57,988 nucleotides of DNA from an uncultured Acetobacter sp. (GCA_937875265.1 CALLXM010000326.1:1-57988); one strand, 5' to 3'. Counted from the first letter of the stretch, positions 1-35,630 are shown. Numbers and translations: made by a program. The notes: a model not told the origin generated them from the letters alone.

Positions 1-2
1 AT

Positions 3-932
3 TTTGGGTGGCGGGATTTTGTCCATGCATCCTTGTCTGAATGGCCAACATGGCTTGCTATTGTGTTCTGTTACGGTGGTTGGTGGTCTCTGGGGTATTG
101 GCTTTATCCAGTAGCACCATGGGCTGCATTGGCAGGGTTGGCGATAGTTGTCGCATTCCATTCTTCTTTGCAGCATGAGGCCATTCATGCTCATCCAACA
201 CCATCTACACTGTGCAACGAACTGCTGCTGGGGTTGCCGCTTGGGCTGGCATACCCTTACCGACGTTACCGTGAGACCCATTTGCAGCATCATGATGATG
301 AGAACCTGACTGACCCTTATGCTGACCCCGAAAGTTATTATTGGGATAGCAATGAGTGGGCAAAGCTGGGGCGTGTCTATCGGTTTCTGCTCGGCGTAAA
401 CCAGACCCTTTTGGGGCGTCTGCTGCTTGGTCCACTATTTGGGAGTTTACGATTTTTTATCGCAGATATGCGCGTTATTGCTGCAGGCAACCAGAAGGTC
501 GGGTTGGCATGGGCTATTCATGGTGTTTCAGTTCTGATCGTTGCGGCAATTGTTACGTTTGGCTTCCATATATCATTCTGGCTGTATGCTCTTGGCCCAG
601 CCTATATTGGTACATCTCTTATTGGCATGCGCTCCTATTGTGAGCATCGGTGGCATGATGCAACAGGCGGAAGAACCATTATTGTAGAGGGGTCACTACT
701 TTCTTTTTTATTCCTCTTTAACAACCTGCATAGTGTTCATCATCATTATCCTGGCCAACCGTGGTTTCGGTTGCGCCAGCTCTACTATGCAGACCGGACG
801 GCATGGCAGGCTCTCAACCACGGTTACGTTTTTAAAGGGTATCGTGCAATTCTCTGGCAGTATCTGTTGCATGCCAAGGAACCACTGCTGCACCCTGCAC
901 AACAAAAATCTGAGAAAAAGAAATGGGCATGA
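3..932 (+). CDS. Membrane fatty acid desaturase-family (His-box diiron) protein, probably 5'-truncated by the window edge
   Basis: Three His boxes (QHEAIH, HLQHH, NLHSVHHH) and several hydrophobic segments. The frame is open from position 3 to the TTG at 33, so the true start may lie upstream. Confidence 0.85.
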   Translation, partial: FGWRDFVHASLSEWPTWLAIVFCYGGWWSLGYWLYPVAPWAALAGLAIVVAFHSSLQHEAIHAHPTPSTLCNELLLGLPLGLAYPYRRYRETHLQHHDDENLTDPYADPESYYWDSNEWAKLGRVYRFLLGVNQTLLGRLLLGPLFGSLRFFIADMRVIAAGNQKVGLAWAIHGVSVLIVAAIVTFGFHISFWLYALGPAYIGTSLIGMRSYCEHRWHDATGGRTIIVEGSLLSFLFLFNNLHSVHHHYPGQPWFRLRQLYYADRTAWQALNHGYVFKGYRAILWQYLLHAKEPLLHPAQQKSEKKKWA

Positions 933-1753
933 AATTCATAGCCAGCATGCCAATGTATGACCAACCTCAGGAACGGGGTACACTTGATGCAACATGGATT
1001 CAGGTGCGTGATGCTTTGCGCCAGAACGGTGTGCCTGCACCAGACGCGCTTGTCCGTCGCAATGCTGATCTTCCGCCGGTACCGGGTGGGATACGGGATG
1101 CCGTGGGACGTCTTGTTGCGCCAGACCCAGCATCTTTACCGCCGGATGAACTGGACCTTTCGGTTGTGTGGCGGCACCCGGCCCTGTTGTTTGGAGAAAC
1201 GTGTTGGGGACCTTTGCAGCATGGGCTGGGTGATTTTGTGCATGTTGTCGAGCAGAACAGCTACGAGGGGCTGACAGGAGGGCAGGGTATTTTTTATCGC
1301 AGTGCGCTTTTGGTGGCGCGTGGGAATTATAATGCATGCGATGCTTCGCCCACGTCTCATGTCAATATTGTGCAGGCCATGACCGGTCGGCACTTTATGT
1401 TTAACGATCACGTATCGCAATCCGGTTATCTGTCTGTTGTCCGTGATTTGCAGAGGCAAGGTGCTTCTCTGGAGGTTTGTTCCGGCACAACCATGACAGG
1501 GAGCCATCTGGCCTCCATGATGCACATTGTCAATGGAAGCGCTGATATTGCCGCAATTGATTGTCGAACCTGGGCCATGCTCCGTCGGGCGGACCCAATA
1601 GCGGCCGATCGTCTGCGAGTCATAGGCTGGACAACGCCATCTATAGGCTTGCCATTTGTTTGTTCACGGCACATCCGTAGTGCACTGCGCCGAACGGTTG
1701 CTAAGGTAGCACAGACGATCATGCCCACTATCCGATATGATTATTATGTTTAG
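929..1753 (+). CDS. PhnD/phosphonate-binding-like (periplasmic binding protein fold) protein without a signal peptide
   Basis: Motifs ASMPMYD, ETCWGP, YRSALL, N..SQSGY, TGSHLASM, ADIAAID, GLPFV. ATG 929 overlaps the desaturase stop (ATGA). No hydrophobic N-terminus. Confidence 0.75.
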   Translation: MKFIASMPMYDQPQERGTLDATWIQVRDALRQNGVPAPDALVRRNADLPPVPGGIRDAVGRLVAPDPASLPPDELDLSVVWRHPALLFGETCWGPLQHGLGDFVHVVEQNSYEGLTGGQGIFYRSALLVARGNYNACDASPTSHVNIVQAMTGRHFMFNDHVSQSGYLSVVRDLQRQGASLEVCSGTTMTGSHLASMMHIVNGSADIAAIDCRTWAMLRRADPIAADRLRVIGWTTPSIGLPFVCSRHIRSALRRTVAKVAQTIMPTIRYDYYV

Positions 1754-1762
1754 CGCCTGCGG

Positions 1763-1800
1763 GCCTCATGCCGTGGTATGCAGGGCATGCTTTATGAGGC
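1763..1800 (+). terminator. Stem-loop after the desaturase/PhnD-like pair (possible terminator)
   Basis: GCCTCAT (1763-1769) / ATGAGGC (1794-1800) with an inner GGTATGC/GCATGCT pairing, 10 bp after the stop; weak U tract. Confidence 0.4.
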
Positions 1801-1977
1801 ATGCGATATGCTTTCTTTAATATTTTATTATCAAAGAAAATCGTAATTTGCTTTAATAACGCAACACTGAGTGTCGTAAGGTAAACAGCGAATAAAATAG
1901 TGATTTTTGGCATATATGGCGCATACGCCACAACGCCATCTCCCATATGCAAGTACGTTGTTGGAACTGAGGCAGGT

Positions 1978-3201
1978 ATGGAAGTATCGACCCTGATTTA
2001 TTTTGTAAGCCTCGTTCGCAATCATTCTGTAAATGATGCGGCTATGGAGTTGAACGTCAGCCCTACGACTATCAATCATGCCGTATACGCGCTTGAGCTG
2101 AGTGCTGGAGTTCCCTTGTTGCTGCGGAATGCGCATGGCCGCAAATCTGTTCCTATAACAACAGCATATGGCGAAAGTTTTCATCGTACCGCTGTTCTTT
2201 TTCTTCAGTCCTGCCTGCGGCTCATCTCTCCTGCTGGCAGGGAGGAAGAGTTGATTACGCAGTTAAGCGAACAGGAGCTTCATAAAATAAGGCAGTCAGG
2301 CATAACCTTTAGAATGATCTCTTATTTTCTGCATGTTTGTGATGCAGGCAGTATTTCCGCTGCCGCAAAAGGGCTGGCAGTGACCCAACCGACATTATCG
2401 CGTCAGATTAGTAAGTTTGAAACTGTTCTGGGTTTCCATATTTTTGAAAGAACACACACAGGCATGCAACTGACCGCTGCTGCGCAGCCAATCAAGGCCA
2501 TATGCGAGACTACAGCGCTTCTTTTTGAACGTCTGAGGCGGAGTATTAGCCTTGGATATTCCCGCGCGGTGAAAGACCTTAAATTTGCGGCAATGATTCC
2601 ATCCAGTAGTAAAAGTGCTCTGGCTTCTTTGCTGGCCGGGCTTATTCCTCTCTGGCATAATCGTGCTTATCAGCCGCCCCTGAGTATCGCAACAATTGTA
2701 GTGCCAGCCATTGTTGCAGGTCTTCTTGATAAAACCTACGATGTTGGGTTGGTCGATGTTATTGACGTACCACCAACATTAGATTTTCTGGATTTTGAAA
2801 CATCACCGATTTTTCTAGTTTTTGGAAAAACGGATCAGAAACTGTCCTTATATAATGACCCGGAAAATATTATAGCTGTGAGCACCATGGCTCTTCCAAG
2901 CTTTGGGACCGGCATGCGACATCTTACGGATGCCTATCTGGAGAGTGCAGCCGTGCGCCCACGCGCTGTACTGGAAACACAGTCCATGTCCCTTATGCTC
3001 CGGCTTGTGGAGGACAATATCTGCTGTGCCATTTTACCGGCAGGATCTTTTGAAGACCATAATGTTTTTTCCAAACAACTGCCTCGAAGATTTTCGCGTA
3101 CAATCCGCCTGTTATGGCGGCGCGATTATAGCAATAAGGATGTGATTGGCCGCCTGGCATCGGCATTACAGGAAGTCCGCTCGGGTTCGCGATGTTGTTA
3201 A
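1978..3201 (+). CDS. LysR-type transcriptional regulator with two tandem HTH domains
   Basis: HTH1 SVNDAAMELNVSPTTINHAVYALE, HTH2 GSISAAAKGLAVTQPTLSRQISKFE, then one LysR substrate-binding domain. ATG 1978 follows GAGGCAGG. Confidence 0.85.
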   Translation: MEVSTLIYFVSLVRNHSVNDAAMELNVSPTTINHAVYALELSAGVPLLLRNAHGRKSVPITTAYGESFHRTAVLFLQSCLRLISPAGREEELITQLSEQELHKIRQSGITFRMISYFLHVCDAGSISAAAKGLAVTQPTLSRQISKFETVLGFHIFERTHTGMQLTAAAQPIKAICETTALLFERLRRSISLGYSRAVKDLKFAAMIPSSSKSALASLLAGLIPLWHNRAYQPPLSIATIVVPAIVAGLLDKTYDVGLVDVIDVPPTLDFLDFETSPIFLVFGKTDQKLSLYNDPENIIAVSTMALPSFGTGMRHLTDAYLESAAVRPRAVLETQSMSLMLRLVEDNICCAILPAGSFEDHNVFSKQLPRRFSRTIRLLWRRDYSNKDVIGRLASALQEVRSGSRCC

Positions 3202-3258
3202 GAGTATATGCCTTCCTTGAATTCCGGAACTCAGTAATGTCTTCGAAAGAAAAATAAT

Positions 3259-5604
3259 ATGGTAAAGACACGTATTTTTTTAACGGTATCAACTCTTTTG
3301 AGCGGTATCGGTTATCCATTGTTCGCTTATGCCCAAAGTGATGCTGCACCAGCGGTCATTAAAAGTGACCCGGGGAAAAAAGCTGTGAAAAAGGACGATA
3401 AAAAGAAAAATGTCGCAGATAATATAGAATCCATTGCCGTTTTTGGGCACGGGTCGACCCGCCAGACGATGTCCATAGGTCGTGCCAGTATGCAGCAGAG
3501 TGCTCCAGGAACATCAGCGCTCAAGGTGCTGAACGAACTGCCGGGCGTTTTATATCAGTCTGCTGATCCTTTTGGTGTGTATGAATATTCCAGTCAGATA
3601 TTTATGCGCGGTTTCAGCCAGTCCCAGCTTGGGTTTACGCTGGATGATGTTCCCTTGGGGGACCAGCAGTTCAATAATTACAATGGCCTTGGTGTTACAC
3701 GCGCTATTATTTCCGATAATATTGGAAGTGTGAATGTCTCGCAGGGGGCCGGGGGCATTGATGTTGCCTCAACGAGCAATCTGGGTGGCGCGATAGAAAT
3801 TCACTCGATGGATCCGTCACACAAGCGTGGTGGTGCTGTATCCCAAACGTTTGGAAGTAATTCGACTTTTCGAACCTTTGCGCGACTGGATAGTGGAGAC
3901 CTCAACCAATCTGGAACACGTTTTTCCGTTTCCTACGCCCGTCTGAACGGTAATTTGTGGAAAGGGCAGGGTTACGATCATTCTGATCAGGTTAATGCCA
4001 AGTTTGTTCAGCCTCTCGCGCGGGACTCATCGCTCAAGGTCTTCTTTGACTGGAGCTCGACCCAGCAGTTTGATTATCAGGATATGACCAAGAACTGGCT
4101 CTCGACCGCAGGAGCGAATTTGTCCAATTATTATCCCGATTATACTGCGGCCTATCAGGCGGCTCAGGGAACCTATCCTGCGCAGATCAGCAAGACAAAT
4201 GACCCCAAAGATGCGGCCTATTATGCTGGAACCGCCAATAGAGTGGATTATCTGGGGGGGATTACGCTGGATGAAAACCTGACGTCAAACCTGAACTGGA
4301 AAACCACCCTTTATGGTCATGCGGATACAGGATACAGCACATGGACGACGCCCTATAAAGCCTCGCCCAACGGAGCGCCATTATCTCAGCGGGTGCAGCA
4401 GCCACAGGTTGCGCGTGGTGGGTTTGAAAGCGCGGTAACATGGAAAGTCGCGCGCAATACGTTTAACGCTGGCGTCTGGTACGAATACGGGAACTTTGAA
4501 ACCGGTCGTTATTTTTCGCAGGCGCCTCTTCTGGGGCAGGGTACACTTGGTAACCCAACAAACGGTTTTCCAGCAGACAAGATATTTGCAACGGCATGGC
4601 ATGAAGCGTTTTCGTCCAACACATTTGTGTTTCACATGCAGGATACATACCATGTGACAGATACACTCAAAATCAATGCCGGTTTCAAATCCATGATTGT
4701 GAACGCTGGCAACAGCGTTCTTGCGCAGGACGAGACGATTAACGGCAAACCTATCGCGCAAGGCCACCTTGAGGCATCCAATGCCTTCTTACCCCAGATT
4801 TCGGCCAACTGGCGTTTTCTGCCTCATCATGAACTGTTTTTTGATGTGTCGCACAATATGCGTGCTTTTCCTGAGGACGGGTTTGGTACCAATATTTCGG
4901 CAAGCCCGTGGACAGCCTCCCAGGCTTCTTTTCAGGAAACAAAGAAAACTCTGCGGCCGGAAACGGACTGGGTTTATGAGGGCGGCTATCGTTTCAGTTC
5001 GCAGTATATCAGTGCGCTAGCTTCTCTTTATCGGATCAATTTTTCCAACCGCTTACAGTTGATTACTAACTCGGCTGGTATTAATCCGGTGACTGCCGTG
5101 CAGAATGTTGGTGGCGTTACAACCAACGGGGCAGAGGCTAGTATTACAGTGCGACCTGTGCACGGACTATCAATCTATAATTCGTTTTCGTATGCTCATT
5201 CAACATATGACCAGAACGTTGTTACGTCCAATAGCCTGCAGGCCATTCGTGGCAAGTTAGTACCTAATTATCCGCAGTTTATGTATAAAGCCAATATTGC
5301 CTATCAGTTAGGTGATCTTAACCTGCATGTGGACGGGTCCTATATTTCTCGGCGAGAGCTGACTTATACAAATGACTTGCGTGTGCCAGGATATTTTTTG
5401 ATGAATTTTGGTGCACGGTATAATTTTGGTGATGCCGGGCCGTTTAAAGGTATTAATGCAAGTTTCAATATATATAATCTGACCAACAAGACGTATGTTG
5501 CCACAACCAATGAACTGGGAAATAATTTTGTCAATACTGGCTACAATTATTTCCTTATGGGCGCGCCCAGGCAGTTTTTTGGTACAATCGGCACAGCGTT
5601 CTGA
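3259..5604 (+). CDS. TonB-dependent receptor
   Basis: Signal peptide (LFAYA/Q), TonB-box-like ESIAVFG, plug motif (LPGV...MRGF...LDDVP), NLTNKTY, C-terminal Phe (GTAF). Confidence 0.93.
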   Translation: MVKTRIFLTVSTLLSGIGYPLFAYAQSDAAPAVIKSDPGKKAVKKDDKKKNVADNIESIAVFGHGSTRQTMSIGRASMQQSAPGTSALKVLNELPGVLYQSADPFGVYEYSSQIFMRGFSQSQLGFTLDDVPLGDQQFNNYNGLGVTRAIISDNIGSVNVSQGAGGIDVASTSNLGGAIEIHSMDPSHKRGGAVSQTFGSNSTFRTFARLDSGDLNQSGTRFSVSYARLNGNLWKGQGYDHSDQVNAKFVQPLARDSSLKVFFDWSSTQQFDYQDMTKNWLSTAGANLSNYYPDYTAAYQAAQGTYPAQISKTNDPKDAAYYAGTANRVDYLGGITLDENLTSNLNWKTTLYGHADTGYSTWTTPYKASPNGAPLSQRVQQPQVARGGFESAVTWKVARNTFNAGVWYEYGNFETGRYFSQAPLLGQGTLGNPTNGFPADKIFATAWHEAFSSNTFVFHMQDTYHVTDTLKINAGFKSMIVNAGNSVLAQDETINGKPIAQGHLEASNAFLPQISANWRFLPHHELFFDVSHNMRAFPEDGFGTNISASPWTASQASFQETKKTLRPETDWVYEGGYRFSSQYISALASLYRINFSNRLQLITNSAGINPVTAVQNVGGVTTNGAEASITVRPVHGLSIYNSFSYAHSTYDQNVVTSNSLQAIRGKLVPNYPQFMYKANIAYQLGDLNLHVDGSYISRRELTYTNDLRVPGYFLMNFGARYNFGDAGPFKGINASFNIYNLTNKTYVATTNELGNNFVNTGYNYFLMGAPRQFFGTIGTAF

Positions 5605-7145
5605 TGACAGATCATTCTGACAGCCAGAGTGTTCTGCTGGCGCCTGGTCAAACAGGTATTGCCGATATCGAGCGTATTGCTCTTACCGGGCATAAGGTTC
5701 TGCTATCAGCTCAGGCATCGGCGAATATTGAGGCAGGGCATGCCTGTCTGTTGCATCACATTGCCGCAGGGGCAACAATTTATGGCGTGAATACCGGGCT
5801 CGGAGCTAACGTGGACACACCGCGCCAGCCAAGCACAGCAAGTGCACAGCAGCACAGTATAATCTGGGCTCGCGCCAGTGGCGCCGGACCATCCGCTACC
5901 AATGCACAGGTCCGTGCCATGATGGCCGTGAGGCTGGCACGGCTGACACTGGGTCGTTCGGGTATTTCTCCTGCCGTTGCAACGGCGCTGGCCACTATGC
6001 TCAATAATAATATTACGCCGGTTGTCCCGCTTGTCGGTGCTTTGAGCGAGGGAGATCTGGCACCAATGGCCCACATTGCCAGTATTCTTACAGGTAAGGG
6101 ACATGCCAGCGTAGCAGGGAAGGGCAGGGTATCGGGGGCTGAGGCGTTTGCACAGATAGGGATACCGTTGCCTGCTTTGGGGCCAAAAGATGGTCTTACG
6201 CTTATTTCCACTAATTCCGCGTCCATCGGGCTCGCATGCCTTAATCTTGGCAGTATCCACAGGCTCATGCGTGCCCATATTGCTGCGCTGGCTTTGTCAT
6301 GCGAGGGGTTTTGCGCAAATCTCTCTCCATTTCAGCCTGGGAGCGTGCATTTACGGCCCGCGTCAGGACAGATGGAGGTTAGTTATGCGCTCCTTGGGTT
6401 ACTGGATGGCGGCACTTTGAACCATGAAGGGTCTGCTCGCCGGTTGCAGGACCCGATCAGTTTTCGGAGCGCAGCCTCCATTGCTGGAGGAGCGTTGGAA
6501 AGCCTGCAACAGGCGCAGCGTGCTGTTGAGCTTGAATTGTCTTCCAGTGACGATAACCCGGCAATCGTGGCGGAAACAAACAGTATTATCCCGAACGGAA
6601 ACTTTGACCCGACGCATGTGGCCGTTGCGGTTGATGCCCTGCATCTGGCCCTGGCAAGGGTGGCGGCTGCAACCGGGGAGCGAATTATGAAAATGATGTC
6701 TCCCTCATTGTCTGGTTTGCCGCGCTTTCTGGCTGAACCGGGAGGAGATGGTACAGGCTTTGCGCCCGTGCAAAAAACGGTTGCTGCACTGGTGGCGGAG
6801 ATTGTGCATGACGCGACCCCACTGCCCCCCGTGGTTATTCCGGTTGCCGAGCGTGTAGAAGATTACGCGTCTCTGCTTTTTCCTGCCTTATGTCACGGAA
6901 AACGCCTGATTTCGCGGATGTATGAACTAAGTGCCATAGAAATCATGGTGGCCGTGCGGGCTATTGTTCTGCGCCCGCCTGTTTGTCTGGGGGCGGGAAC
7001 TCAGGCGTTGCTGGACAGACTTGGTTCCTTATGCCCTCAACTGCCGTTGGAACACCCAGTGGCAGATAATATTGCCCTTCTTACTCAGGCTATAGAACAC
7101 CCCGATTTTTTAGCGTCCTTCGGTATTTTGGCTGATGGCGAATAG
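5604..7145 (+). CDS. Aromatic amino acid lyase (HAL/PAL) superfamily protein lacking the MIO tripeptide; ergothionase-like
   Basis: YGVNTGLG, KDGLTLISTN, LQDPISFR, DNP, GNF, EDY. GALSEGDLAPM replaces GSVGASGDLAPL. TGATG overlap with the TBDR. Confidence 0.85.
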   Translation: MTDHSDSQSVLLAPGQTGIADIERIALTGHKVLLSAQASANIEAGHACLLHHIAAGATIYGVNTGLGANVDTPRQPSTASAQQHSIIWARASGAGPSATNAQVRAMMAVRLARLTLGRSGISPAVATALATMLNNNITPVVPLVGALSEGDLAPMAHIASILTGKGHASVAGKGRVSGAEAFAQIGIPLPALGPKDGLTLISTNSASIGLACLNLGSIHRLMRAHIAALALSCEGFCANLSPFQPGSVHLRPASGQMEVSYALLGLLDGGTLNHEGSARRLQDPISFRSAASIAGGALESLQQAQRAVELELSSSDDNPAIVAETNSIIPNGNFDPTHVAVAVDALHLALARVAAATGERIMKMMSPSLSGLPRFLAEPGGDGTGFAPVQKTVAALVAEIVHDATPLPPVVIPVAERVEDYASLLFPALCHGKRLISRMYELSAIEIMVAVRAIVLRPPVCLGAGTQALLDRLGSLCPQLPLEHPVADNIALLTQAIEHPDFLASFGILADGE

Positions 7146-7201
7146 GTAATATTGCTTCCTGTTTATGTAGGTTTGCAAAAATTTTTCAGGAAAAGAAAAA
7201 C

Positions 7202-8203
7202 ATGACCGATGTCCAGATCAACTACCTTAATGGTGCTGATGTCGCCCGTCTTTCCCTAACGGACAGCGAGATCATGGAGGCTGTGTCAGGCGCTCTTGCA
7301 GCGCAGTCACATGGGCAGACTGTGGTTGAACCACGTGTGCATCTTGTGCCCGAGAGTTCGGATAAAGGTCATTTCAACGTCCTGCGAGGTGTCATTCAGC
7401 CTCTGGGTCTTGCTGGTGTTAAAATTGTTGGTGATTTTGTCGATAATTATAAACAGAATCTGCCGTCCGAAATGGCTGTTCTCAATCTGTTTGACCCTGT
7501 GACCGGCATGCCAAAAGCCATTATTGATGCCACGCGGATTACAGATATGCGCACTGGAGCGATGACCGCACTGGGTGCGCGTTTTCTGGCTCCTCGGAAT
7601 AGTCGCATACTTGGGCATATTGGCACGCGTGGAACAGCATATTGGAATATAAGACTTCTTGATCACCTCTTTGATTTTGAGGAAATACGCGTGCATTCCC
7701 GCAGGGAAGAAAGCCGACAGTCCTTTGCACGGCGGTTGGAGCAGGACTTGGGTAAAAAGGTGATTGTTACAACAACATGGGAAGCCTGTCTGGACGGGGC
7801 AGATATTCTGGTGGAGGCCAGTCGGTTACCAGAACCCACGCCACTCCTGAAAACCGAGTGGGTTCGCAAGGGCGCATTGATTATTCCATATGGCACTATG
7901 AGCGCTCTGGAGCTCAGTTTAACAGATGTGATTGATAAAGTGGTGGTGGATGACTGGGGGCAATGTGGTCCAGGCCGCCCATACGGTGCTCTGCGTCAGC
8001 ACGTAGATCAGGGGAAGATCACGCGCGAGACTCTTTACGCAGAGTTGTGTGATATTGTTGGAGGAAAATTGCCAGGCAGGGAGAGTGATGACGAGACGAT
8101 ACTGTTCTGGCACCGAGGGTTAAGCATTACCGATATTGCATTGGGCGCGGCCCTGTTGAACAAGGCAGCCAAGCTTGGAATTGGCCAGAAGCTGCAATTT
8201 TAA
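7202..8203 (+). CDS. Ornithine cyclodeaminase/mu-crystallin family protein
   Basis: GVKIVG, ITDMRTGAMTALGA, Rossmann GHIGTRGTA, C-terminal FWHRGLSITDIALG. Confidence 0.9.
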   Translation: MTDVQINYLNGADVARLSLTDSEIMEAVSGALAAQSHGQTVVEPRVHLVPESSDKGHFNVLRGVIQPLGLAGVKIVGDFVDNYKQNLPSEMAVLNLFDPVTGMPKAIIDATRITDMRTGAMTALGARFLAPRNSRILGHIGTRGTAYWNIRLLDHLFDFEEIRVHSRREESRQSFARRLEQDLGKKVIVTTTWEACLDGADILVEASRLPEPTPLLKTEWVRKGALIIPYGTMSALELSLTDVIDKVVVDDWGQCGPGRPYGALRQHVDQGKITRETLYAELCDIVGGKLPGRESDDETILFWHRGLSITDIALGAALLNKAAKLGIGQKLQF

Positions 8204-8301
8204 AAATCTTGTTAAATTATATATAAGTCTGAAATCATGACACAATGACGTCAAACAACGGTTTTTCAATCCCTACTGATCGTGTGATAATCCTTTATAC
8301 G

Positions 8302-8334
8302 ATCCGGACCAGAAGCGGTTGTTCTGGCCCGGAT
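8302..8334. terminator. Hairpin between convergent genes
   Basis: ATCCGG-A-CCAGAA / TTCTGG-C-CCGGAT: 12 pairs with one mismatch and a 7-nt loop. Confidence 0.55.
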
Positions 8335-8354
8335 ATCTTATCAGTGGATGGCGA

Positions 8355-9455
8355 TCAGACCGTGAAGAGGTCTTTGTGGGTGTGTGGCTGACACCGGAGA
8401 TACTGGTTGGGCGCTTTGACATGCCCTCCCAGATGCGCGGCTGCGTGCCAAGGCCAGCGCGGATTGTAAAGGATCGTACGCGCAATGGCGATCATGTCGG
8501 CATCACCCGTAGCCACGATAGCTTCGGCCTGTTCGAAGCCCGTAATCAGGCCAACGGCTACCACGGGGATGGACGTTTCCTGCTTAACCACGCGGGCTAG
8601 TGGAACCTGGTATCCTGGAGCAACCGGAATGTTCTGATGGGGGCTCAATCCGCCACTGGAAACGTGGATAGCATCGCAGCCGCGCGCTTCGAGAGCATTC
8701 GAGAAGGTGATGGTCTGCTCAATGTCCCAGCCACCTTCCACCCAGTCAGTTCCAGAGACCCGAACAGAGATGGGGCGGTCGGGCAATGCTGTGCGCACGG
8801 CGTCGAACACCTCCAACGGAAAGCGCATCCGGTTCTCGAGCGCTCCTCCATAGGAATCGTCCCTTTGGTTTGAAAGGGGTGAAAGGAATTGGTGCAAAAG
8901 GTAACCGTGCGCAGCATGCAATTGCACGGCATCGATCTCCATTGTTGCGGCTCGACGGGCGGATGCGACGAAGGCATCCCGTATCCTGAGCATGCCATCA
9001 CGGTCTAGTCTCATCGGTGCATGATCTGTTGGCTGAAAACGTAGATCAGAGGGAGCGACCGTTTGCCACCCGTTTGCCATGTCGGGTGCGATTTGTGGCC
9101 TACCTTTCCACGGTACCTCGCACGATGCTTTACGCCCGGCATGGGCAAGCTGAATGGCGATCTTAACGTCTGAAGTTGCCCGGATAACGTCCAGAACACG
9201 GCGCATGGCACCTTCAGTCCGCTCATCCCACAGGCCGACATCGGCATACGTGATGCGCCCATCGGGTGTTACGGCTGTTGCTTCGATCGTTAACAATCCT
9301 GCGCCAGAAAGCGCCATGGAGCCAAGGTGACTCAGATGCCAGTCTGTCATTTGGCCATTTACGGCCGAATACTGGCACATAGGTGCCACGACGATACGGT
9401 TGGACAGAGTTAAGCCCTGAATGTCTATCGGCGTAAAGAGAACAGGTCTGCTCAT
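8355..9455 (-). CDS. NADH:flavin oxidoreductase (Old Yellow Enzyme, YqjM/NamA-like)
   Basis: NRIVVAPMCQYSA, IQLAHAGRKAS, HAAHGYLLHQFLSP, NQRDDSYGG. Confidence 0.93.
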   Translation of the reverse strand: MSRPVLFTPIDIQGLTLSNRIVVAPMCQYSAVNGQMTDWHLSHLGSMALSGAGLLTIEATAVTPDGRITYADVGLWDERTEGAMRRVLDVIRATSDVKIAIQLAHAGRKASCEVPWKGRPQIAPDMANGWQTVAPSDLRFQPTDHAPMRLDRDGMLRIRDAFVASARRAATMEIDAVQLHAAHGYLLHQFLSPLSNQRDDSYGGALENRMRFPLEVFDAVRTALPDRPISVRVSGTDWVEGGWDIEQTITFSNALEARGCDAIHVSSGGLSPHQNIPVAPGYQVPLARVVKQETSIPVVAVGLITGFEQAEAIVATGDADMIAIARTILYNPRWPWHAAAHLGGHVKAPNQYLRCQPHTHKDLFTV

Positions 9456-9581
9456 GTGAAGTTTCCCAGATTTGTAAGGACGTTTTTATTCTAGGACGTG
9501 TGGTTGGTTAATCCCAATGATAGCGGAGACGATTGGGGCCGCCGCTATAAAGATTGATTTCACTTTATTATATTTTTACCG

Positions 9582-11267
9582 TCAGTTTTTAAAAGGATCT
9601 GACTTTCCGGTTTCTGTGCCAGCAATTGGACGCGAAGGGGCTGCGGTCATCAGGTTCTCATAATATGCCGGGTTAGGGGGGACATCAATGCCGCCAGTCG
9701 GAGTGGGGTGATGCAATCCTTCATATTGAAAGCCCGTGAACGTCATGGTCTGGTCTGGTGAAGGGAGGAGTTGGTCATTCCAGCCACCGCCCAAAGCTCG
9801 CACCATGCCGACTGTGGCCTGAAGTGCACGGGCTTGTACCTGCGCCTGCTCAATACGGGCATCAAGCGTGTTGACCTGTGCGATTAACGCATCCAGATAA
9901 CCGTCAGCGCCGCCTTTATAAAGCGTCATGGTCAATGTCTGTGATTGCATGGCGGCGTCAACGGCCTGTTTCAGGCGACTGTTTTCTGCACGCAGGCGTG
10001 CTGTCATCGACAGGCCGTTTTCAACATCCTTGAAGGCAGACAAAACTGCCATGCGATAATGGTCGCGGGTTTCGCGATAATTTGACCATGTGCGTTGAAG
10101 CTGGGCTCTGCGCAGTCCGCCTTCAAACAGAGGCATGGTGACGGAGGCGCCGTAAGACCACATGCTGTTTGCCAGATTGGCCAGATCAAACCCGTTGGCG
10201 TCAAAGCCACCATTCGCGTTGAAAGATACATGCGGGTAGAATGCTGCCCGCGCAATGCCAATGGCCCGGTTGGCCTGTGCCATTTCGCGCTCGGCTACGG
10301 CAATATCCGGACGCCGTTGCAATAGTTCGGACGGCATGCCCAGCGGAAAAACAGGCTCGGCAGCATCCTGATGAGCGATTTCAGGAATATGAAAAGATGA
10401 GGGCGATGCATTGACTAGAACAGCCAGAGCATGTTCCAGCACTTCCCGCTGTGCCTGTACATCCAGCTGGCGTGCCTGGGTCATATAAAGCTGGTTTTTT
10501 GCACGCGCTACATCAATGCCGGTTGCATCCTGATTATCAAGCCGTGTCTGGGTGACACGGAGCGCCTGCTGGTAATAGCTGATAGATTGCTCATAGATGG
10601 CGTTCTGTGCATCAAGTCCTCGGAGGGCAAAAAAATCGGTTGCCAGTTCGGCCTGAAGACTAAGCCGGGCAGACGCATATTGTGCGGCCTGTGCCTGTGC
10701 ATAATATTTTTGCGCCCGTACACGATTGCGAACAGAAGACCATATGTCAGGTTCCCAACTAGCCATGCCCCCATAAAATTCATCAGTCGCAGTAATCGGT
10801 CCTTTGTAGCGGAATAGCCGATCTGAAGAGCTTTTGTTGTTGCTTGACCCAAATGCCAGAGCAAAGTGCGGCAGCAAGTCAGACCGTGCTTCCATTACAA
10901 TGGATCGTGCCTGAATAAAGCGCTCAGCTGCGGCTTGCAGATCGGCATTGCCTTCCATGGCCTTTGCTTCAAGAGTACTCAGTGTTGGGTCGTTAAACAG
11001 TGTCCACCAATCAGATCGTATGACAGTATCCTGTGGCTGTGCCTCACGGAACAAACCTTCCCCGTGCCATGATGCAGGAACAATGAAGTGGGGAGCCTGA
11101 TAGGCTGGGGCTAAATCACACGCGCTAAGCACAATGAGCGTGGCAAGTGCCGCACCTTTAAAAATATGATTCTGATAAAAGGTTTTTCCGAGAAGAGACT
11201 TGTTTACGGAAGTCACAAGCATATTTTTTCGGGGGGATGTCTGGGGGCGTGTAAGGAGAATGCTCAT
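9582..11267 (-). CDS. RND efflux outer-membrane lipoprotein (NodT/OprM family)
   Basis: Lipobox LSAC, WWTLFNDPTL, WEPDIW, PSELLQRRPDI, ALGGGW. ATGA overlap with the adaptor gene; the start could be further downstream. Confidence 0.92.
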   Translation of the reverse strand: MSILLTRPQTSPRKNMLVTSVNKSLLGKTFYQNHIFKGAALATLIVLSACDLAPAYQAPHFIVPASWHGEGLFREAQPQDTVIRSDWWTLFNDPTLSTLEAKAMEGNADLQAAAERFIQARSIVMEARSDLLPHFALAFGSSNNKSSSDRLFRYKGPITATDEFYGGMASWEPDIWSSVRNRVRAQKYYAQAQAAQYASARLSLQAELATDFFALRGLDAQNAIYEQSISYYQQALRVTQTRLDNQDATGIDVARAKNQLYMTQARQLDVQAQREVLEHALAVLVNASPSSFHIPEIAHQDAAEPVFPLGMPSELLQRRPDIAVAEREMAQANRAIGIARAAFYPHVSFNANGGFDANGFDLANLANSMWSYGASVTMPLFEGGLRRAQLQRTWSNYRETRDHYRMAVLSAFKDVENGLSMTARLRAENSRLKQAVDAAMQSQTLTMTLYKGGADGYLDALIAQVNTLDARIEQAQVQARALQATVGMVRALGGGWNDQLLPSPDQTMTFTGFQYEGLHHPTPTGGIDVPPNPAYYENLMTAAPSRPIAGTETGKSDPFKN

Positions 11268-12460
11268 TCGTCATCCTCCTCATCATTATTGCTGGCCGAA
11301 GTCAGGTATCCTTTTTCTGGCACACTCAGGCGTACGGTCTGCCCTTCGAGGAGGTCTGCCGGAGGGTTATTAATAATCTGGTCGGTCGGGGTTAGCCCCG
11401 CATCCACTTCCGTATATGCATCTGACATGCGGCCTACGGTTATGTTTTTGTAGTGTGCCTTGTTTTGGGTATCGACAGTTACGACCTGCATACCTTTTTC
11501 CTGAAATACCAATGCGCCAGTTGGAATTGTATAAACCCCACCTTCTGCCGGCGCAGAAAGGGAAACGGTGGCAAATGTTCCTGGCCACAATTTCTGGTCC
11601 GCATTATCAATCGTAAATTCTGTAATGGCCGTGCGCGTATTGGGGTCATAGCCCTTAGCAATGGTCAGAAAATTAGCTGTAAAAACCTGATTGGGATATT
11701 GCGGAACCGTTACGCGGGCTTTCAGTCCTGGTTTCAGAACATAGGACAACACCTCGGGCACGGAGACAAATAGACGCATCTCATGGGTGTCTGCTACGGT
11801 AAACAGTTCACCAGCAGTTCCATTGGCGTTCAGATTGCCACCGCCTGCGCCAACATAATCTCCTACACTGATATTTCGGGCCGTTACAACGCCGTCAAAT
11901 GGAGCAACAATGGTTTTGAAGCGTTCCAGAGCATCATAATGGTCCACATTGTGCTGTGCTGCCTCCAAAGCTGCACGGGCAGACTGTTCATTCGCGTTTT
12001 GAACAGACACGGACTGCCCTGATACAGCCTGTGATTTTCCCATCGAACGCCAGCGATCAGCCGTAATAGTGGCAAGTCCGTATTTGGCCTGTGTCACCTG
12101 AAGGTCAGCCTTGGTCTGTGCATATTGCGCATCCAGCCCCGGGGCGTTGATTTCTGCAAGGGTATCCCCCTTTTTTACAAGAGCACCATAATCCTTGTTC
12201 CACATTTTCACATAACCGGAGACCTGCGCATAAATGGGCGCTTCATACCAGGCGTTGATATTTCCAGGCAGGGTCATGGCAAGTGTAGACGGCGCTGGCT
12301 TGGGCTGTACGACTGCAACGTCGGGGATACTGGCGTGGATTGCGTCAGCCTGTAGCGTCACCTGATTACGGAGATGCTGTAATTCCAGATACACCACATA
12401 TCCCACAAGCACACACAGCAGGGAGCCGACAAACAGACGGTTTTTTGTAATTGTGGACAT
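11264..12460 (-). CDS. RND efflux periplasmic adaptor (MFP)
   Basis: N-terminal TM anchor, lipoyl-like IYAQVSGYV..VKKGD, IVAPFDGVV, LWPGTF. Confidence 0.93.
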   Translation of the reverse strand: MSTITKNRLFVGSLLCVLVGYVVYLELQHLRNQVTLQADAIHASIPDVAVVQPKPAPSTLAMTLPGNINAWYEAPIYAQVSGYVKMWNKDYGALVKKGDTLAEINAPGLDAQYAQTKADLQVTQAKYGLATITADRWRSMGKSQAVSGQSVSVQNANEQSARAALEAAQHNVDHYDALERFKTIVAPFDGVVTARNISVGDYVGAGGGNLNANGTAGELFTVADTHEMRLFVSVPEVLSYVLKPGLKARVTVPQYPNQVFTANFLTIAKGYDPNTRTAITEFTIDNADQKLWPGTFATVSLSAPAEGGVYTIPTGALVFQEKGMQVVTVDTQNKAHYKNITVGRMSDAYTEVDAGLTPTDQIINNPPADLLEGQTVRLSVPEKGYLTSASNNDEEDDE

Positions 12461-15400
12461 CAGACGGCCTCCTGCCCATTGTCATGGTCCGTTTCAGACG
12501 GACTGCGGTTTTTTGTATGAGAGGTATTGTGAAAAATTGTGTATACACACGGTACAAACAGCAGTGTTGAAATGGTCGCCACAATAAGGCCGCCGATAAC
12601 TGCCTTACCTAATGGTGCATTTTGCGAATTACTGGTCGCCATGGGCACCATGCCAATCACCATGGCAGAGGCTGTCATGATAACTGGTCGAATACGTCCA
12701 AACCCGGCTTCTACTGCTGCAACAAGAGCATTGCCGTGCAGGGTGAAACGTTCCTTCGCAAAAGAGACGACCAAAATAGAATTTGCCGTAGCCGTTCCCA
12801 TGCACATGATGGCGCCCGTCAACGCCGGAACGGAAAGACGTGTGTGGGTTAGGAATAGGCTCCAGGCAATTCCGGCAAGTGCTCCTGGCAGCGCGGAAAT
12901 AATAATGAAAGGATCAACCCATGACTGGAAGTTTATAACAATCAGCATGTAGATCAGCATAATAGAGATAATCAGACCGGAAATGAGCTCTACATACGCC
13001 CCATGCATAGTGACTGCCTGCCCACGAATATCGACTGCAGCAGTTTGTGGGAGGTCTTTTTGCGTGTTGGCAACGACTTGTTTGACTTTTGCCAGCACAG
13101 ATCCCAAATCAGTACCTTCAGTTGAAACATACACATCAATTTCCGGCATGGAATTGTAGTGGGATACCTGTCCTGGTGTCCCTGTCGGCGTCACGGTGCT
13201 GATGCTGCCCAGAAGCTGCATATCTGTGCCTTTAGGGTCATTATCGCCTTTATCAACAGGGATGGTCAGCAAATCATTATAATGAGTCAGCTGATCTTGT
13301 GACACGTAGACGTTCAGTGGAAACGTGATGCCTGTTTTTGGGTCAAGCCAATATTGCGGGTCCACCGTCTGACTTCCAGAAAGAGTCATAAGCTCGTTAT
13401 TGGCAATATCCGCTTCCGTCATGCCTGTAGCCTGACCGAATGTACGATTGCCTTGCACAAACAGGGTCGGTGTTTTCATGGTTTGCTGGATCACCACATC
13501 TGCCGTGCCGGGAATGGCGCGCAGCTTGTTCACCAAGAGGCGGGCATACTGGTAATTGTCACGAATATCCGGACCGGACACCTGAATATCAATGGGTGCT
13601 GGTGACCCAAAGTTGAGTATTTTTTCTGTCAGATCAGCTGGCTGAAAGGTAAAGACGCTTCCGGGGAATTTGGCAGACAGATCGTGACGTAGCAGTTTAC
13701 GATAAGTCCAAACTGGAGATTCCTCATCCGTGAGCGAAATTGTCAGGTCACAATCCTGCGTGCCTATAGAGGGGGTTGGGATGAAAGCCTGATTATGTGG
13801 CCCTTCGGGCAAACCACAATTATTGATGATACCGGAGACTTTTCCAGGAAGAAGCTGCTGGATTCTATCATCAACCAGAGAGACGATGCGTCCTGTTGTT
13901 TCAATACGCATTCCCAACGGCGTACGCATGTGCATCTGCATTGTGCCCGATTTCACTTCCGGGAAAAAATCCTGGCCGGATATCAGGAACAATCCTAGTG
14001 AAAGGACAGATAGCCCCAGAAAACCCATGGCAAAAAGACCGCGTCGCGCAATGATACGTTCTAGCAGTCGACCATAACTGGCCCGAAAATTATGAAATGC
14101 GTGTTCAAACCGGTTCTGGAAACGCCCGAGAAAACCTTTGGGCAGAGCAAGGTGCTCATCACTGTGCAGTCCCGGATGAACCTGCCCGGCCAGAAGATAT
14201 TTGGCCATTGTCGGCACTAATGTGCGTGACAGAATGAAAGATGCCAGCATGGCATAGACAATGGCTTCTGCCATGGGCATGAACAGCCAGCCTGCAACGC
14301 CGCTTAACCGAAAAAGCGGTGTCCACACTATGCAGATACACAATGTTGATACCAGAGTAGGCACCACAATCTGGTTGGCGGCGTCAATAATTGCTGGTTC
14401 CAGCTCCTTACCTTCTTCAAGGTGGGTATCAATATTTTCAATCATGACGGTGGCGTCATCCACCAGAATGCCGACAGCCAGAGCCAAGCCGCCAAGTGTC
14501 ATGACATTGATGGTCTGTCCTGATAGCAGAAGACAGATAATAGCCGTGAGAATGGCCAGAGGAATGGATGTGGCGATAATAAGGGTGGAGCGCCATGAAC
14601 CCAGAAATAGCAGAACGACCAGCCCGGTCAGAATGGCGGCGGTCACCATTTCACGTACGACGTCCTTAATGGCATTTTTTACAAAAACTGATGCATCACT
14701 CAGGAGAGAAATATGTACGTCAGGCGGAACAAGTTTCTGGAGGCGGGGGAGAAGCTCCTTGGTACGTGCCACCACATCCAGTGTTGAGGCGTTACCACTT
14801 TTCATCACGACAACTTCCACTCCCTGGCGGCCCTGAACCAGCACAAGGTTAGTCTGTGGGTGGCCGCCACGGTACACCTGCGCTACGTCGTGCACGTAGA
14901 TAACGGCATTCCCAACACGTTTGACCGGAATGTCGCCCAGTTCCTTCATGGAGCGAGGGGTGGCGTTAGTCTGAACCATCCAGTCTGTTGTTGCTATTTT
15001 CTGATCGCCAGCCGGAAGCACAATGTTCTGTTTGCGTAGGGCATTCTGCACATCCATTGCCGAGAGATGGTGTGCCTGTAATTGCTTCTGGTTCAAGGCA
15101 ACCATGATAAAGCTGTCCATGCCACCATAAGGATGAGGCAGAACCGCGCCCGGAACTGTTACCAGAATGGGTCGAATACGCGTCATAGCGATTTTATACA
15201 GATCAGAGGGCGTCTGTTTTTCAGACGTGATCTGAAGGGCCAGAACCGGAACGGATGATGCTTCCAGCCGCATGACCATGGGAGCAGGGATGTTGTCGGG
15301 TAACTGTTTGATAACAGTTTGAGAAATTGCTGTGACTTCAGCCTCAGCTTCCCCAATATCCGTGCCAGGTTGAAAATAGATGTTAACAATGCTCCTGCCG

Positions 15401-15663
15401 TAATAGGAGCTGCTTTCCATATGTTCGATACCCTCAACCGTGGAAGTTACGGCCAGTTCGTAATTATAGGTAATGCGGCCAGCAAATTCCTCAGGCAGCA
15501 TGCCGCCGTATGTCCATACCACAGAAACAACGGGAATTCGGATATTTGGAAACACATCGGTCGGGGCATTGAAAAGGGACAGCACACCAAAAGCGATAAT
15601 AAGAAGCGACAGGACAATAAATGTGTAAGGTCGCTTCAGTGCCGTCACAACGATGGCATTCAT
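12460..15663 (-). CDS. RND efflux permease (AcrB/AcrD/AcrF family)
   Basis: 1067 aa, DVFPNI, GILVDDATVMIEN, RIRPVIMTA, APLGKAVIGGL. TGATG overlap with the adaptor gene. Confidence 0.95.
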   Translation of the reverse strand: MNAIVVTALKRPYTFIVLSLLIIAFGVLSLFNAPTDVFPNIRIPVVSVVWTYGGMLPEEFAGRITYNYELAVTSTVEGIEHMESSSYYGRSIVNIYFQPGTDIGEAEAEVTAISQTVIKQLPDNIPAPMVMRLEASSVPVLALQITSEKQTPSDLYKIAMTRIRPILVTVPGAVLPHPYGGMDSFIMVALNQKQLQAHHLSAMDVQNALRKQNIVLPAGDQKIATTDWMVQTNATPRSMKELGDIPVKRVGNAVIYVHDVAQVYRGGHPQTNLVLVQGRQGVEVVVMKSGNASTLDVVARTKELLPRLQKLVPPDVHISLLSDASVFVKNAIKDVVREMVTAAILTGLVVLLFLGSWRSTLIIATSIPLAILTAIICLLLSGQTINVMTLGGLALAVGILVDDATVMIENIDTHLEEGKELEPAIIDAANQIVVPTLVSTLCICIVWTPLFRLSGVAGWLFMPMAEAIVYAMLASFILSRTLVPTMAKYLLAGQVHPGLHSDEHLALPKGFLGRFQNRFEHAFHNFRASYGRLLERIIARRGLFAMGFLGLSVLSLGLFLISGQDFFPEVKSGTMQMHMRTPLGMRIETTGRIVSLVDDRIQQLLPGKVSGIINNCGLPEGPHNQAFIPTPSIGTQDCDLTISLTDEESPVWTYRKLLRHDLSAKFPGSVFTFQPADLTEKILNFGSPAPIDIQVSGPDIRDNYQYARLLVNKLRAIPGTADVVIQQTMKTPTLFVQGNRTFGQATGMTEADIANNELMTLSGSQTVDPQYWLDPKTGITFPLNVYVSQDQLTHYNDLLTIPVDKGDNDPKGTDMQLLGSISTVTPTGTPGQVSHYNSMPEIDVYVSTEGTDLGSVLAKVKQVVANTQKDLPQTAAVDIRGQAVTMHGAYVELISGLIISIMLIYMLIVINFQSWVDPFIIISALPGALAGIAWSLFLTHTRLSVPALTGAIMCMGTATANSILVVSFAKERFTLHGNALVAAVEAGFGRIRPVIMTASAMVIGMVPMATSNSQNAPLGKAVIGGLIVATISTLLFVPCVYTIFHNTSHTKNRSPSETDHDNGQEAV

Positions 15664-31503: not shown

Positions 31504-32910
31504 TTAGGGTATAGTTTTTCCAGGATTAAGAAGGTTTTTTGGATCAAGAGCACTTTTAATAGAACGCATTACTTCTAGAGCGACAGGGTTTTTATGTTTT
31601 TGCATTGAATCTAGTTTACAAAGACCGACGCCATGCTCTGCAGAAAAAGTACCTCCTAACTCCACGGCAAGATCATCAATGGCAGTACGTATTGCGCTAC
31701 AGAGTGCTTCATCAGTCTTGGATGGCCAGACGGTATAATGAATATTTCCATCACCTAAATGTGCTACTGCAATATCTGTATAATCAGGGTCAATGGCTTT
31801 CATGCGGAGTGGGATTAGATCTAGATAAACTGAAATTTTATCTAGAGGAACTGCGATATCTGTATCTACCACTGGGTGTTTGCAGAAAGCAACTTCAGCA
31901 GCAGCTTCTCTTATTTTCCATAAATTTTGTCTTTGTGTATCATTTTGCGCAATAACTGCATCCTGCACTATTTCTTCTTCTAAGGCATCAGACAGTACAT
32001 CCTGCAATATTTCAGAAATATCTTTTTGAGAAAAGGATGTTTCTAACTCTATTAGAATACAAGAAGGATAAGGTGAACAAAAAATTTCATTTTCATTAGG
32101 ATGAAGATCATAATAGCAACTTAAAAAATTAGCTGACATAAATTCGTAAGCAAGAAGCGACCCATTAGATGCATCTTGCAGCTTATTGAAGAGCAAGGGT
32201 ACTAGCTCGAGGGTATTAACTGTTACCATGGCCGTAGCGTAACACGTGGGGCGTGGATATAATTTCACAATGGCAGCAGTAATAATACCAATCTGCCCTT
32301 CCGCTCCAATAAAGAGATCTTTTAAATCCAAACCTGAATTATTTTTAGGTAAAGCCTGCATAAGGTCAAGAATGCGCCCATCAGGCATAACCACTTCCAA
32401 ACCAAGGCATAATTCTCTCGTATTGCCGTAGCGTATAACATTCGACCCTCCAGCGTTTGTGGATAACACGCCACCAATCTGAGCAGATCCTGTTGCACCA
32501 AAGGACAAGGGAAAAATAAGATCATTCTCCATTGCGGCCTTGTTAAGAGTATCGACTACGACGCCGGCTTCAACAACAGCAATACGTGCTTCCGTAGAGA
32601 TTTGTCTTACGCGGTTCATACGATCAAGCGAAATAATAAGAGAATTTACAGCGTGAGACCCGCCTGTCAGTCCTGTATTGCCTGATATCGGCACAACAGG
32701 GATGCCTGATGCGTAAGCAAGGGCAAGAACAGCTGAAATCTCTTGCGTGCTGCCCGGTCGCACAACCGCCAGGGGTATGTTGCGATATTGGCCCGTCCAG
32801 TCTGTCTGCCATTTTTCGGTATCAGGACCATAAAGCACATGTGCCGAACCAAGAAGAGAAGTGAGTTGAGTGAGGAATGAGATATTTGTCATGTGGTCCC
32901 GCTGTATCAT
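31504..32910 (-). CDS. FAD-binding oxidoreductase, D-2-hydroxyacid (D-2-hydroxyglutarate/D-lactate, GlcD-like) dehydrogenase
   Basis: SGNTGLTGG, QIGGVLSTNAGG, FIGAEGQIGII, HLGDGNIH, SAEHGVG, LLNPGK. Start may be 32892. Confidence 0.9.
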   Translation of the reverse strand: MIQRDHMTNISFLTQLTSLLGSAHVLYGPDTEKWQTDWTGQYRNIPLAVVRPGSTQEISAVLALAYASGIPVVPISGNTGLTGGSHAVNSLIISLDRMNRVRQISTEARIAVVEAGVVVDTLNKAAMENDLIFPLSFGATGSAQIGGVLSTNAGGSNVIRYGNTRELCLGLEVVMPDGRILDLMQALPKNNSGLDLKDLFIGAEGQIGIITAAIVKLYPRPTCYATAMVTVNTLELVPLLFNKLQDASNGSLLAYEFMSANFLSCYYDLHPNENEIFCSPYPSCILIELETSFSQKDISEILQDVLSDALEEEIVQDAVIAQNDTQRQNLWKIREAAAEVAFCKHPVVDTDIAVPLDKISVYLDLIPLRMKAIDPDYTDIAVAHLGDGNIHYTVWPSKTDEALCSAIRTAIDDLAVELGGTFSAEHGVGLCKLDSMQKHKNPVALEVMRSIKSALDPKNLLNPGKTIP

Positions 32911-33021
32911 GCCTAATTACGACATAAATCATGTGCCCAAATAGTTTCTCAGCAGAAACAGAGTGAATGCGTCAATAGTTTAATTTTGTAATTTTTAAAG
33001 GATATATCTTCAAGTGATAGG

Positions 33022-33044
33022 TTTGGTATTTTTATGATACTAAA
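33022..33044. promoter_or_regulatory. Imperfect palindrome / LysR-type box in a divergent promoter
   Basis: TTTGGTAT-N7-ATACTAAA (GTAT-N7-ATAC, contains T-N11-A). Confidence 0.35.
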
Positions 33045-35576: not shown

Positions 35577-35590
35577 TTAGCTTGGGCGGC

Positions 35591-35625: not shown

Positions 35626-35630
35626 ATAAC

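Follow-up and report, generated by a model that had tools for sequence, protein, structure and literature searches.

Does a run of six same-strand genes at the start of a contig from an uncultured Acetobacter sp. form one catabolic system, and what would such a system act on? The contig (GCA_937875265.1, CALLXM010000326.1; the whole stretch of 57,988 nt is hereafter the window) opens, on the plus strand throughout, with genes for a membrane diiron 'fatty acid desaturase'-like enzyme (1..932, 5'-open), a predicted cytoplasmic AioX/ArrX-like protein of the PhnD fold (929..1753), a LysR regulator with two helix-turn-helix (HTH) domains (1978..3201), a TonB-dependent outer-membrane receptor (TBDR; 3259..5604), an ergothionase-like lyase lacking the 4-methylideneimidazole-5-one (MIO) group (5604..7145) and an NAD(P) enzyme of the ornithine cyclodeaminase (OCD)/mu-crystallin family (7202..8203). 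A preliminary description had taken the six for a single, undescribed system for the uptake and breakdown of ergothioneine, hercynine or a related compound. The antioxidant ergothioneine is abundant in fungi and in the diet, and which organisms degrade it, and to what end, has been mapped only in part. Our analysis shows that the locus is two separately travelling modules joined, and not one system: module A, with the desaturase-like enzyme, the PhnD-like protein and the TBDR, and module B, with the LysR, the lyase and the OCD-family enzyme. From their sequences we predict, with a confidence evenly divided between yes and no, that the two modules jointly scavenge sulfur from ergothioneine. Module B is likely to be a sulfonate lyase with an NAD(P)H-dependent desulfonase, and module A may, more doubtfully, be an S-oxygenase with a desulfinase.

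The gene structure itself stands as first described. Open reading frame calling on the whole window confirms six intact plus-strand frames in 1-8203, with an ATGA overlap between the desaturase-like and PhnD-like genes at 929-932 and a TGATG overlap between the TBDR and lyase genes at 5602-5606. All six proteins carry Pfam domains above cut-off (PF00487 in the desaturase-like enzyme, PF12974 in the PhnD-like protein, two copies of PF00126 with PF03466 in the LysR, PF00593/PF07715 in the TBDR, PF00221 in the lyase and PF02423 in the OCD-family enzyme), and none of the six reaches a cut-off among the named NCBIfam families. The missing MIO of the lyase, the doubled HTH of the LysR and the signal-less PhnD-like protein were also borne out, by alignment, Pfam and inspection of the N-terminus. 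As had been suspected, the locus continues upstream: the window is the start of contig C326, and contig C121 of the same genome (G000) shares 55 exact bases with the window start. C121 supplies the first dozen or so codons of the desaturase (candidate ATGs at C121 2524 and 2533) and, divergent from it on the minus strand (L021), the genes of an XRE-type HTH regulator (279 aa, with an unannotated C-terminal domain; C121 1592-2431) and of a major facilitator superfamily (MFS) transporter (416 aa; C121 267-1517), which makes an eight-gene locus.

Two separately travelling modules

The eight-gene order recurs in the Acetobacter records L023-L025 (81-96% protein identity) and in L247; the modules also occur apart. 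Four other acetic acid bacteria (L214, L215, L216, L246) have the order MFS-XRE-desaturase-PhnD-like-TBDR without a nearby lyase or OCD gene, and two more have the desaturase, PhnD-like and TBDR genes. In six further loci of the Acetobacteraceae that lack lyase and OCD genes, TBDR orthologs with 57-76% identity stand beside the desaturase and PhnD-like genes. Module A loci of this kind rule out a single conserved six-gene system, as the preliminary description had supposed it.

Overall, 43 desaturase loci were compared: at class level 29 stretches, drawn from 28 of the 29 genomes, at family level 13 of the 15 matches, and at genus level one. They include an XRE gene in 27 cases, a PhnD-like gene in 26, PF00221 in 7, a betaine demethylase of the MttB family in 6, a TBDR ortholog in 6, hut genes in 3 and OCD in 2. 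Judged by its frequency beside the desaturase, the XRE protein is probably the sensor of module A. The double-HTH LysR is assigned to module B, since it is found in none of the 43 desaturase-centred loci and double-HTH LysRs (26-27%) adjoin OCD and lyase genes in three non-Acetobacter loci (L050, L058 and L059).

The two modules meet repeatedly. The desaturase is joined to the OCD or to a MIO-less lyase in Acetobacter, Pseudomonas, Lichenicola and Terrarubrum, and in L132, L136, L128, L217 and L221. At class level, the desaturase is present in 29 of 250 Alphaproteobacteria and the OCD in 17 of 250, with both in 12 of the 17. Seen from the lyase, in a sample of the best 80 of 466 loci picked by likeness to the window subfamily, a PhnD-like gene is present in 51 of the 80 loci; all 28 loci that bear a desaturase also have the PhnD-like gene and nearly all the OCD, most of them being from related Pseudomonas genomes. 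For example, L043 697-11449 holds desaturase, PhnD-like, extracytoplasmic function sigma factor, FecR, TBDR, OpuAC, SsuA, OCD and lyase genes in one run, and about two dozen related Pseudomonas loci resemble it. The Pseudomonas loci are an independent fusion of both modules, and offer a tractable host for genetics.

These counts bear on a rival reading, in which module B acts as proposed and module A is a mere neighbour whose own substrate is some other thione or sulfonium betaine, or else a selenium analogue or arsenic species. We consider it unlikely, since the desaturase is joined to OCD or MIO-less lyase genes in several unrelated lineages, and in the window the TBDR and lyase genes, one from each module, are translationally coupled. 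It would account for the lack of desaturase-OCD enrichment within Acetobacteraceae, for module A neighbours that include carnitine, MttB, 2-thiouracil desulfurase-family and arsenic-resistance genes, and for the nearest PhnD-like structures being arsenite binders.

The lyase and the OCD-family enzyme of module B

What does the lyase act on? As read from the alignment, it cannot form MIO: Ser-Glu-Gly (S148-E149-G150, codons 6045..6053, plus strand) replaces the MIO-forming Ala-Ser-Gly, which is found in none of the 79 covered relatives. With a profile built from 33 relatives, ergothionase 6s7j comes out on top (E 4.6e-124, against 3.9e-106 for histidine ammonia-lyase, HAL), and an AlphaFold model of the lyase (pLDDT 90.8) has 6s7j as its best fold match (TM 0.91). 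The E-G-D at the MIO site, Tyr60, Lys391 and Glu419 match the E-G-D, the catalytic Tyr, the QKT lysine and the Glu of ergothionase. Lys391 (codon 6774..6776, plus strand) is placed by profile alignment and equated with Lys384, the aligned 6s7j residue being chain position 383 and a numbering offset of one being assumed. Where HAL and ergothionase have the His that binds the imidazole (in 6s7j, the one in LNSH), the window lyase has Arg90 (codon 5871..5873, plus strand). Arg stands at this site in all 79 covered relatives, and Lys or Arg at the Lys391 site in 80 of 80. The protein is also set apart from HutH, as besides the missing Ala-Ser-Gly and the Arg90 it has Ile285 for the Tyr of QDPY, and scores 303 bits with TIGR01225 against a cut-off of 539.

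With the ergothionases of T. denticola (6s7j/6s7q) and S. oneidensis (SO_3057) the window lyase has in common the MIO-less HAL fold, the E-G-D, the Tyr base, Lys384 and the Glu; it differs from them in having 26% identity, Arg90 for the imidazole His and, as its partner, an OCD-family enzyme instead of a thiourocanate hydratase or flavocytochrome. According to two preprints, Lys384 binds the thiolate in ergothionase, with His and Glu binding the two imidazole nitrogens, and hercynine-type lyases have a neutral residue at the Lys384 site (bioRxiv 10.64898/2026.04.22.720169; bioRxiv 10.1101/2025.08.13.670108). Swoo_3913, a histidine betaine trimethylammonia-lyase and also a MIO-less PF00221 member, keeps the His and has Asn at the Lys384 site, where the window lyase has Arg and Lys. 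Two fixed cations, Arg90 and Lys391, suggest an anionic substituent on the imidazole, as in ergothioneine sulfonate or sulfinate; a Lys kept and an Arg gained are what an anionic C2 substituent would lead one to expect.

Hercynine is an unlikely substrate of the window lyase, because the enzyme keeps K391 and gains an Arg where a hercynine lyase is neutral and has His. Uptake and breakdown of an ergothioneine-type compound remains the best reading of the locus. The version first put forward, with the lyase acting on ergothioneine or hercynine and the OCD and diiron enzymes replacing thiourocanate hydratase for a gain of nitrogen or carbon, seems improbable to us. Although the lyase retains the Tyr, Lys and Glu of ergothionase and some close relatives with the locus have a urocanase, the imidazole His is Arg throughout the subfamily, the hercynine lyase is neutral at the Lys site, and no urocanase was found in the window genome G000 (96% complete) nor in G436, both with the full locus. 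Other carriers of the locus do have a urocanase. Since the enzyme was not found in some carriers and is present in others, sulfur gain is likely the common purpose and carbon use optional.

Two further sets of lyases were observed beside module genes. MIO-less lyases with the His kept and no Lys directly adjoin desaturase, XRE or PhnD-like genes in L128 (9928-11400), L217 (9980-11896) and L221 (5766-7256); by these residues they are candidate hercynine lyases, showing the pattern that an enzyme acting after desulfurisation should have. Very divergent MIO-less PF00221 proteins, most of which have Arg for the His but differ at the Lys position, adjoin the desaturase or the same OCD subfamily in L139 (7483-13375), L201, L203, L205, L207 and L208, and may hint at several further substrates.

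The OCD-family enzyme matches PF02423 with 180 bits against a cut-off of 24. None of the named functions of the family (OCD, alanine dehydrogenase, SbnB, EutC, LhpI, BhcD) is reached, the best score being 176 bits against an NCBIfam cut-off of 409. The subfamily has invariant motifs of its own, GHFNVLRG and WHRG, the latter sitting where alanine dehydrogenase has DSTG. Members of the same subfamily (61-96% identity) lie within 10 kb of the lyase in 73 of the 80 lyase loci. Moreover, of 23 loci centred on the OCD gene (16 of the 18 matches at class level and 7 of the 15 at family level), 8 have hut genes, 4 a directly adjacent urocanase and 7 a MIO-less lyase; these neighbours suggest urocanate as the OCD product. 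The 80 lyase loci also include betaine-binding OpuAC in 48, sulfonate-binding SsuA in 21 (a call above the NCBIfam cut-off for the one protein tested) and YeiH-type exporters in 5. As a side observation, the OCD ortholog in G005 (L022 11605-12602) is frameshifted near codon 195-199, by a sequencing error or as a pseudogene.

The pairing of these two enzymes fits the breakdown of ergothioneine sulfonate, and module B is probably the pathway of Yan et al. 2022. That pathway reportedly pairs a C-N lyase for the sulfonate with a reductive desulfonase of the OCD family, possibly also with a sulfinate desulfinase. In the window a MIO-less lyase and an OCD-family enzyme are likewise adjacent, and lyase-OCD pairs of Rhizobium are 40-51% and 72-74% identical to those of the window. 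Some of these Rhizobium loci also have a PhnD-like gene and a betaine ATP-binding cassette (ABC) transporter; on Rhizobium plasmids the order is hutC-lyase-betaine substrate-binding protein-OCD-PhnD-like-ABC. The window OCD clusters with rhizobial OCDs and not with those of other Acetobacteraceae (100/96, in an unrooted tree from which no donor is claimed). Compared with that pathway, the window adds predicted TBDR and MFS uptake, the desaturase-like enzyme and the XRE regulator; its PhnD-like protein is of another subtype, and no urocanase is found in its genome. The lyase and OCD half is probably not undescribed, as a bacterial ergothioneine sulfonate pathway is in print, from Agrobacterium radiobacter (ACS Catal 12:4825, doi 10.1021/acscatal.2c00169). 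A literature search with most subscription papers beyond its reach gave no text describing the enzymes of the sulfonate pathway. Taken alone, this half is of modest interest, and module A is the interesting part.

Module A and the predicted sulfur route

For the desaturase-like enzyme, the three His boxes and the EH motif, comprising all iron ligands, are invariant in 26 of 26 aligned homologs. The sole solved relative found is AlkB (8f6t), with a weak match (E 0.0017). A 'DPES' motif, first considered subfamily-specific, was dropped as AlkB has the same motif. The His-box diiron motif is common to AlkB, CrtR and GntB, all of them weak matches far below cut-off; to judge from the name of the GntB model, an amino acid can be the substrate of an enzyme with the membrane diiron fold. 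In public databases, subfamily members go by no other names than 'fatty acid desaturase' or hypothetical protein. The window protein reaches no named model, and around it lie genes for transport and catabolism.

Profile and fold searches alike give AioX and ArrX as the nearest solved relatives of the PhnD-like protein (AioX profile E 1.5e-35; AioX/ArrX fold match Z 20.4, rmsd 3.1, 220 aligned). Arsenite binding via Cys106, a pocket of seven residues and a role as a sensor, not an enzyme, are given for AioX in its description (PMC5908839). The window protein keeps six of the seven: C92 (codon 1202..1204, plus strand, by profile alignment), Y123, S163, S165, H193 and D211 correspond to Cys106, Tyr131, Ser161, Ser163, His192 and Asp210, and the seventh, Tyr88, falls outside the aligned stretch. 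Among these, C92, S163 and D211 are invariant in 61 of 61 aligned homologs. Unlike AioX of Rhizobium NT-26 and ArrX, to which it is 14-18% identical, the protein has no signal peptide, has an added invariant Met9-Tyr10, and in the window is not accompanied by an arsenite oxidase, by regulators of arsenite oxidase or reductase, or by a sensor kinase. A signal-like hydrophobic N-terminus is absent from it and from all 61 aligned homologs. It does not look like a PhnD-type substrate-binding protein either, having no signal peptide, no ABC genes in the eight-gene locus, and 38 bits with TIGR01098 against a cut-off of 112; a search of the Atlas with a PhnD-like homolog returned only PhnD-named clusters. 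The sulfur of sulfite and of sulfinates is pyramidal, like arsenite. By this analogy, a cytoplasmic enzyme or trap for sulfur oxyanions is plausible. A parallel with DszB, a Cys desulfinase of periplasmic binding protein fold, is an analogy only, DszB not being among the listed fold matches. Two subtypes of the family are distinguished, one His-bearing and found with the desaturase, as in the window, the other His-less and found with the OCD (22 of the 80 lyase loci).

Where module A stands alone, its purpose can be approached from its neighbours. PF00221 was not found in four of five module-A-only genomes nor in G024, and the fifth has a high-scoring HutH-like match beside a urocanase. As module A is carried by genomes in which no PF00221 gene was found, it must bring some benefit on its own, and sulfur release would be one. 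Seven annotated plasmid desaturase regions were hand-picked from 57 records. Four of the seven, one only weakly, have sulfur-scavenging genes (luciferase-like monooxygenases, msuE, tauA, sfnG/sfnB, sulfonate and sulfate ABC transporters), with MttB or corrinoid genes in two of the other regions and a HAL-family gene in one; the rhizobial desaturase is often located among sulfur-starvation genes. These neighbours would imply a histidine-derived betaine that can also supply sulfur, and by that reasoning ergothioneine is indicated. As to the sulfur or nitrogen scavenging suggested earlier, the sulfur-starvation neighbours and the urocanase not found in this genome point to a gain of sulfur rather than of nitrogen or carbon. 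As a separate observation, a 2-thiouracil desulfurase-family gene (PF04463; L214 4682-5260, minus strand) was noted some 1.7 kb away from a stand-alone copy of module A.

The route that we predict is as follows. The TBDR and the MFS transporter would bring in ergothioneine together with its oxidised forms. Oxidation of the thione (ergothioneine + O2 to the sulfinate) would fall to the desaturase-like diiron enzyme, and the Cys92 protein, as a desulfinase, would free sulfite from the sulfinate, leaving hercynine. In module B, the lyase would convert ergothioneine sulfonate to 2-sulfourocanate and trimethylamine, and the OCD-family enzyme, as an NAD(P)H-dependent reductive desulfonase, would convert 2-sulfourocanate to urocanate and sulfite. 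The sulfite would enter cysteine synthesis, a sulfite/nitrite reductase-family gene being present in the genome, and the carbon skeleton would be discarded in the window genome.

Desulfinase partners exist for ergothioneine dioxygenase (ETDO), an iron enzyme unrelated to the desaturase-like one. ETDO with its desulfinases would follow the same chemistry as proposed here, from thione to sulfinate to desulfurised betaine. S-dioxygenation of ergothioneine to the sulfinate is known from ETDO, with a 3-His iron centre in a soluble dimer (bioRxiv 10.64898/2026.05.19.726356), whereas module A has a membrane diiron His-box enzyme and a Cys protein of periplasmic binding protein fold. Because the enzyme types differ, module A would be convergent with the ETDO route. 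We tentatively propose, as a possibility that falls short of an even chance, that the widespread pair of desaturase and signal-less PhnD in Proteobacteria is an unrecognised ergothioneine desulfurisation system, made up of a membrane diiron thione S-dioxygenase and an AioX-fold protein whose arsenite-binding cysteine would have been adapted to sulfinate desulfination. A literature search, most subscription papers and supplements being beyond its reach, returned nothing linking the desaturase-like or the PhnD-like protein to ergothioneine.

The same genes could instead form one linear route, in which the desaturase carries the oxidation of ergothioneine through to the sulfonate, the lyase and OCD turn this into trimethylamine, urocanate and sulfite, and the AioX-like protein, instead of being an enzyme, traps or senses sulfite in the cytoplasm and signals to the XRE or LysR protein. 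AioX being a sensor and not an enzyme (PMC5908839) fits this, and so do the desaturase-bearing lyase loci, 28 of 28 with PhnD-like and nearly all with OCD, and the PhnD-like gene in 51 of 80 lyase loci, as expected of a handler of shared sulfite. Yet most of the 28 are related Pseudomonas genomes, and module A is present in genomes without a found lyase or OCD subfamily, where the sulfonate would be a dead end; we think this linear version has only a small chance of being right.

Returning to the two modules as a joint sulfur route, several points weigh against it. No membrane diiron enzyme is known to work as an S-dioxygenase, and in the majority of the 43 desaturase loci no neighbour relates to histidine or sulfur. 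The class-level overlap of desaturase and OCD (Fisher p 2e-9) is inflated by kinship and genome size, and in Acetobacteraceae the desaturase and the OCD subfamily, each in 15 of 150 genomes, share 2, which is about chance. On the side of the PhnD-like protein, the His-less subtype is mostly without any desaturase, the closest solved relatives bind arsenite, and a homolog in Ruegeria conchae (L244 3779-8744) is divergent from an arsB-arsJ-gapdh operon; some family members may handle arsenic. As to the lyase, a single-sequence search places HAL slightly above ergothionase, and the conservation across the 80 loci is partly due to selection, because these were picked by subfamily likeness.

If module A is what we propose, a mis-annotated route to the sulfur of ergothioneine is carried by about one tenth of the Alphaproteobacteria sampled (29 of 250) and by many Pseudomonas. 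It would be a Gram-negative counterpart of ETDO and its desulfinase, supplying cells starved of sulfur with sulfite, and lyases or MttB demethylases with hercynine. The name 'fatty acid desaturase' would then be wrong for at least 973 protein clusters and 'phosphonate-binding protein' for at least 992, and the membrane diiron superfamily would gain S-oxygenation, a chemistry new to it.

Host, integrity and surroundings of the locus

In an independent assembly, window positions 1-9500 lie in one contig with 90 substitutions and no indels, which rules out a pseudogene or an assembly artefact. The host is taken as Acetobacter-like because the eight-gene order recurs in the Acetobacter records L023-L025. 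Of 54 genomes of the genus, 6 have the desaturase and 5 the OCD, all close kin and some perhaps identical with the assemblies of the named loci. Since the Acetobacter-like host is present in a food-fermentation metagenome, such a route could lower ergothioneine and release trimethylamine in food fermentation. Scans for promoters (15 against 9.3 ± 3.2) and for terminators (8 against 9.9 ± 2.5) stay near the shuffle level.

The contig as a whole (1-57988) has 40-54% G+C against 56% for the genome, with four TBDR-type genes and several catabolic operons, and looks like a nutrient-scavenging island. Convergent with the locus, 8355-15663 (minus strand) holds an Old-yellow-enzyme-type flavin oxidoreductase gene and a resistance-nodulation-division-type efflux trio, which are not conserved beside the locus in L022-L024. 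At 19371-27932 (minus strand) is a 2853-aa GH94 protein, which by its domain content we take to be cyclic beta-1,2-glucan synthase-like. The genes in 31504-37922 code for an FAD-linked oxidase, a TBDR, a distant second OCD-family protein (35631-36533, minus strand) and a class IV aminotransferase, possibly another uptake and catabolic unit. The next group, 38059-47643, is an unassigned operon for the catabolism of nitrogen compounds, with two amidohydrolases, an Asp/Glu/hydantoin racemase, a polysaccharide-deacetylase-like protein, a carbon-nitrogen hydrolase, a polar amino acid ABC transporter and a LysR. In addition, a phospholipase C-like gene and a gene for a Hint-domain protein are present at 53789-57834.

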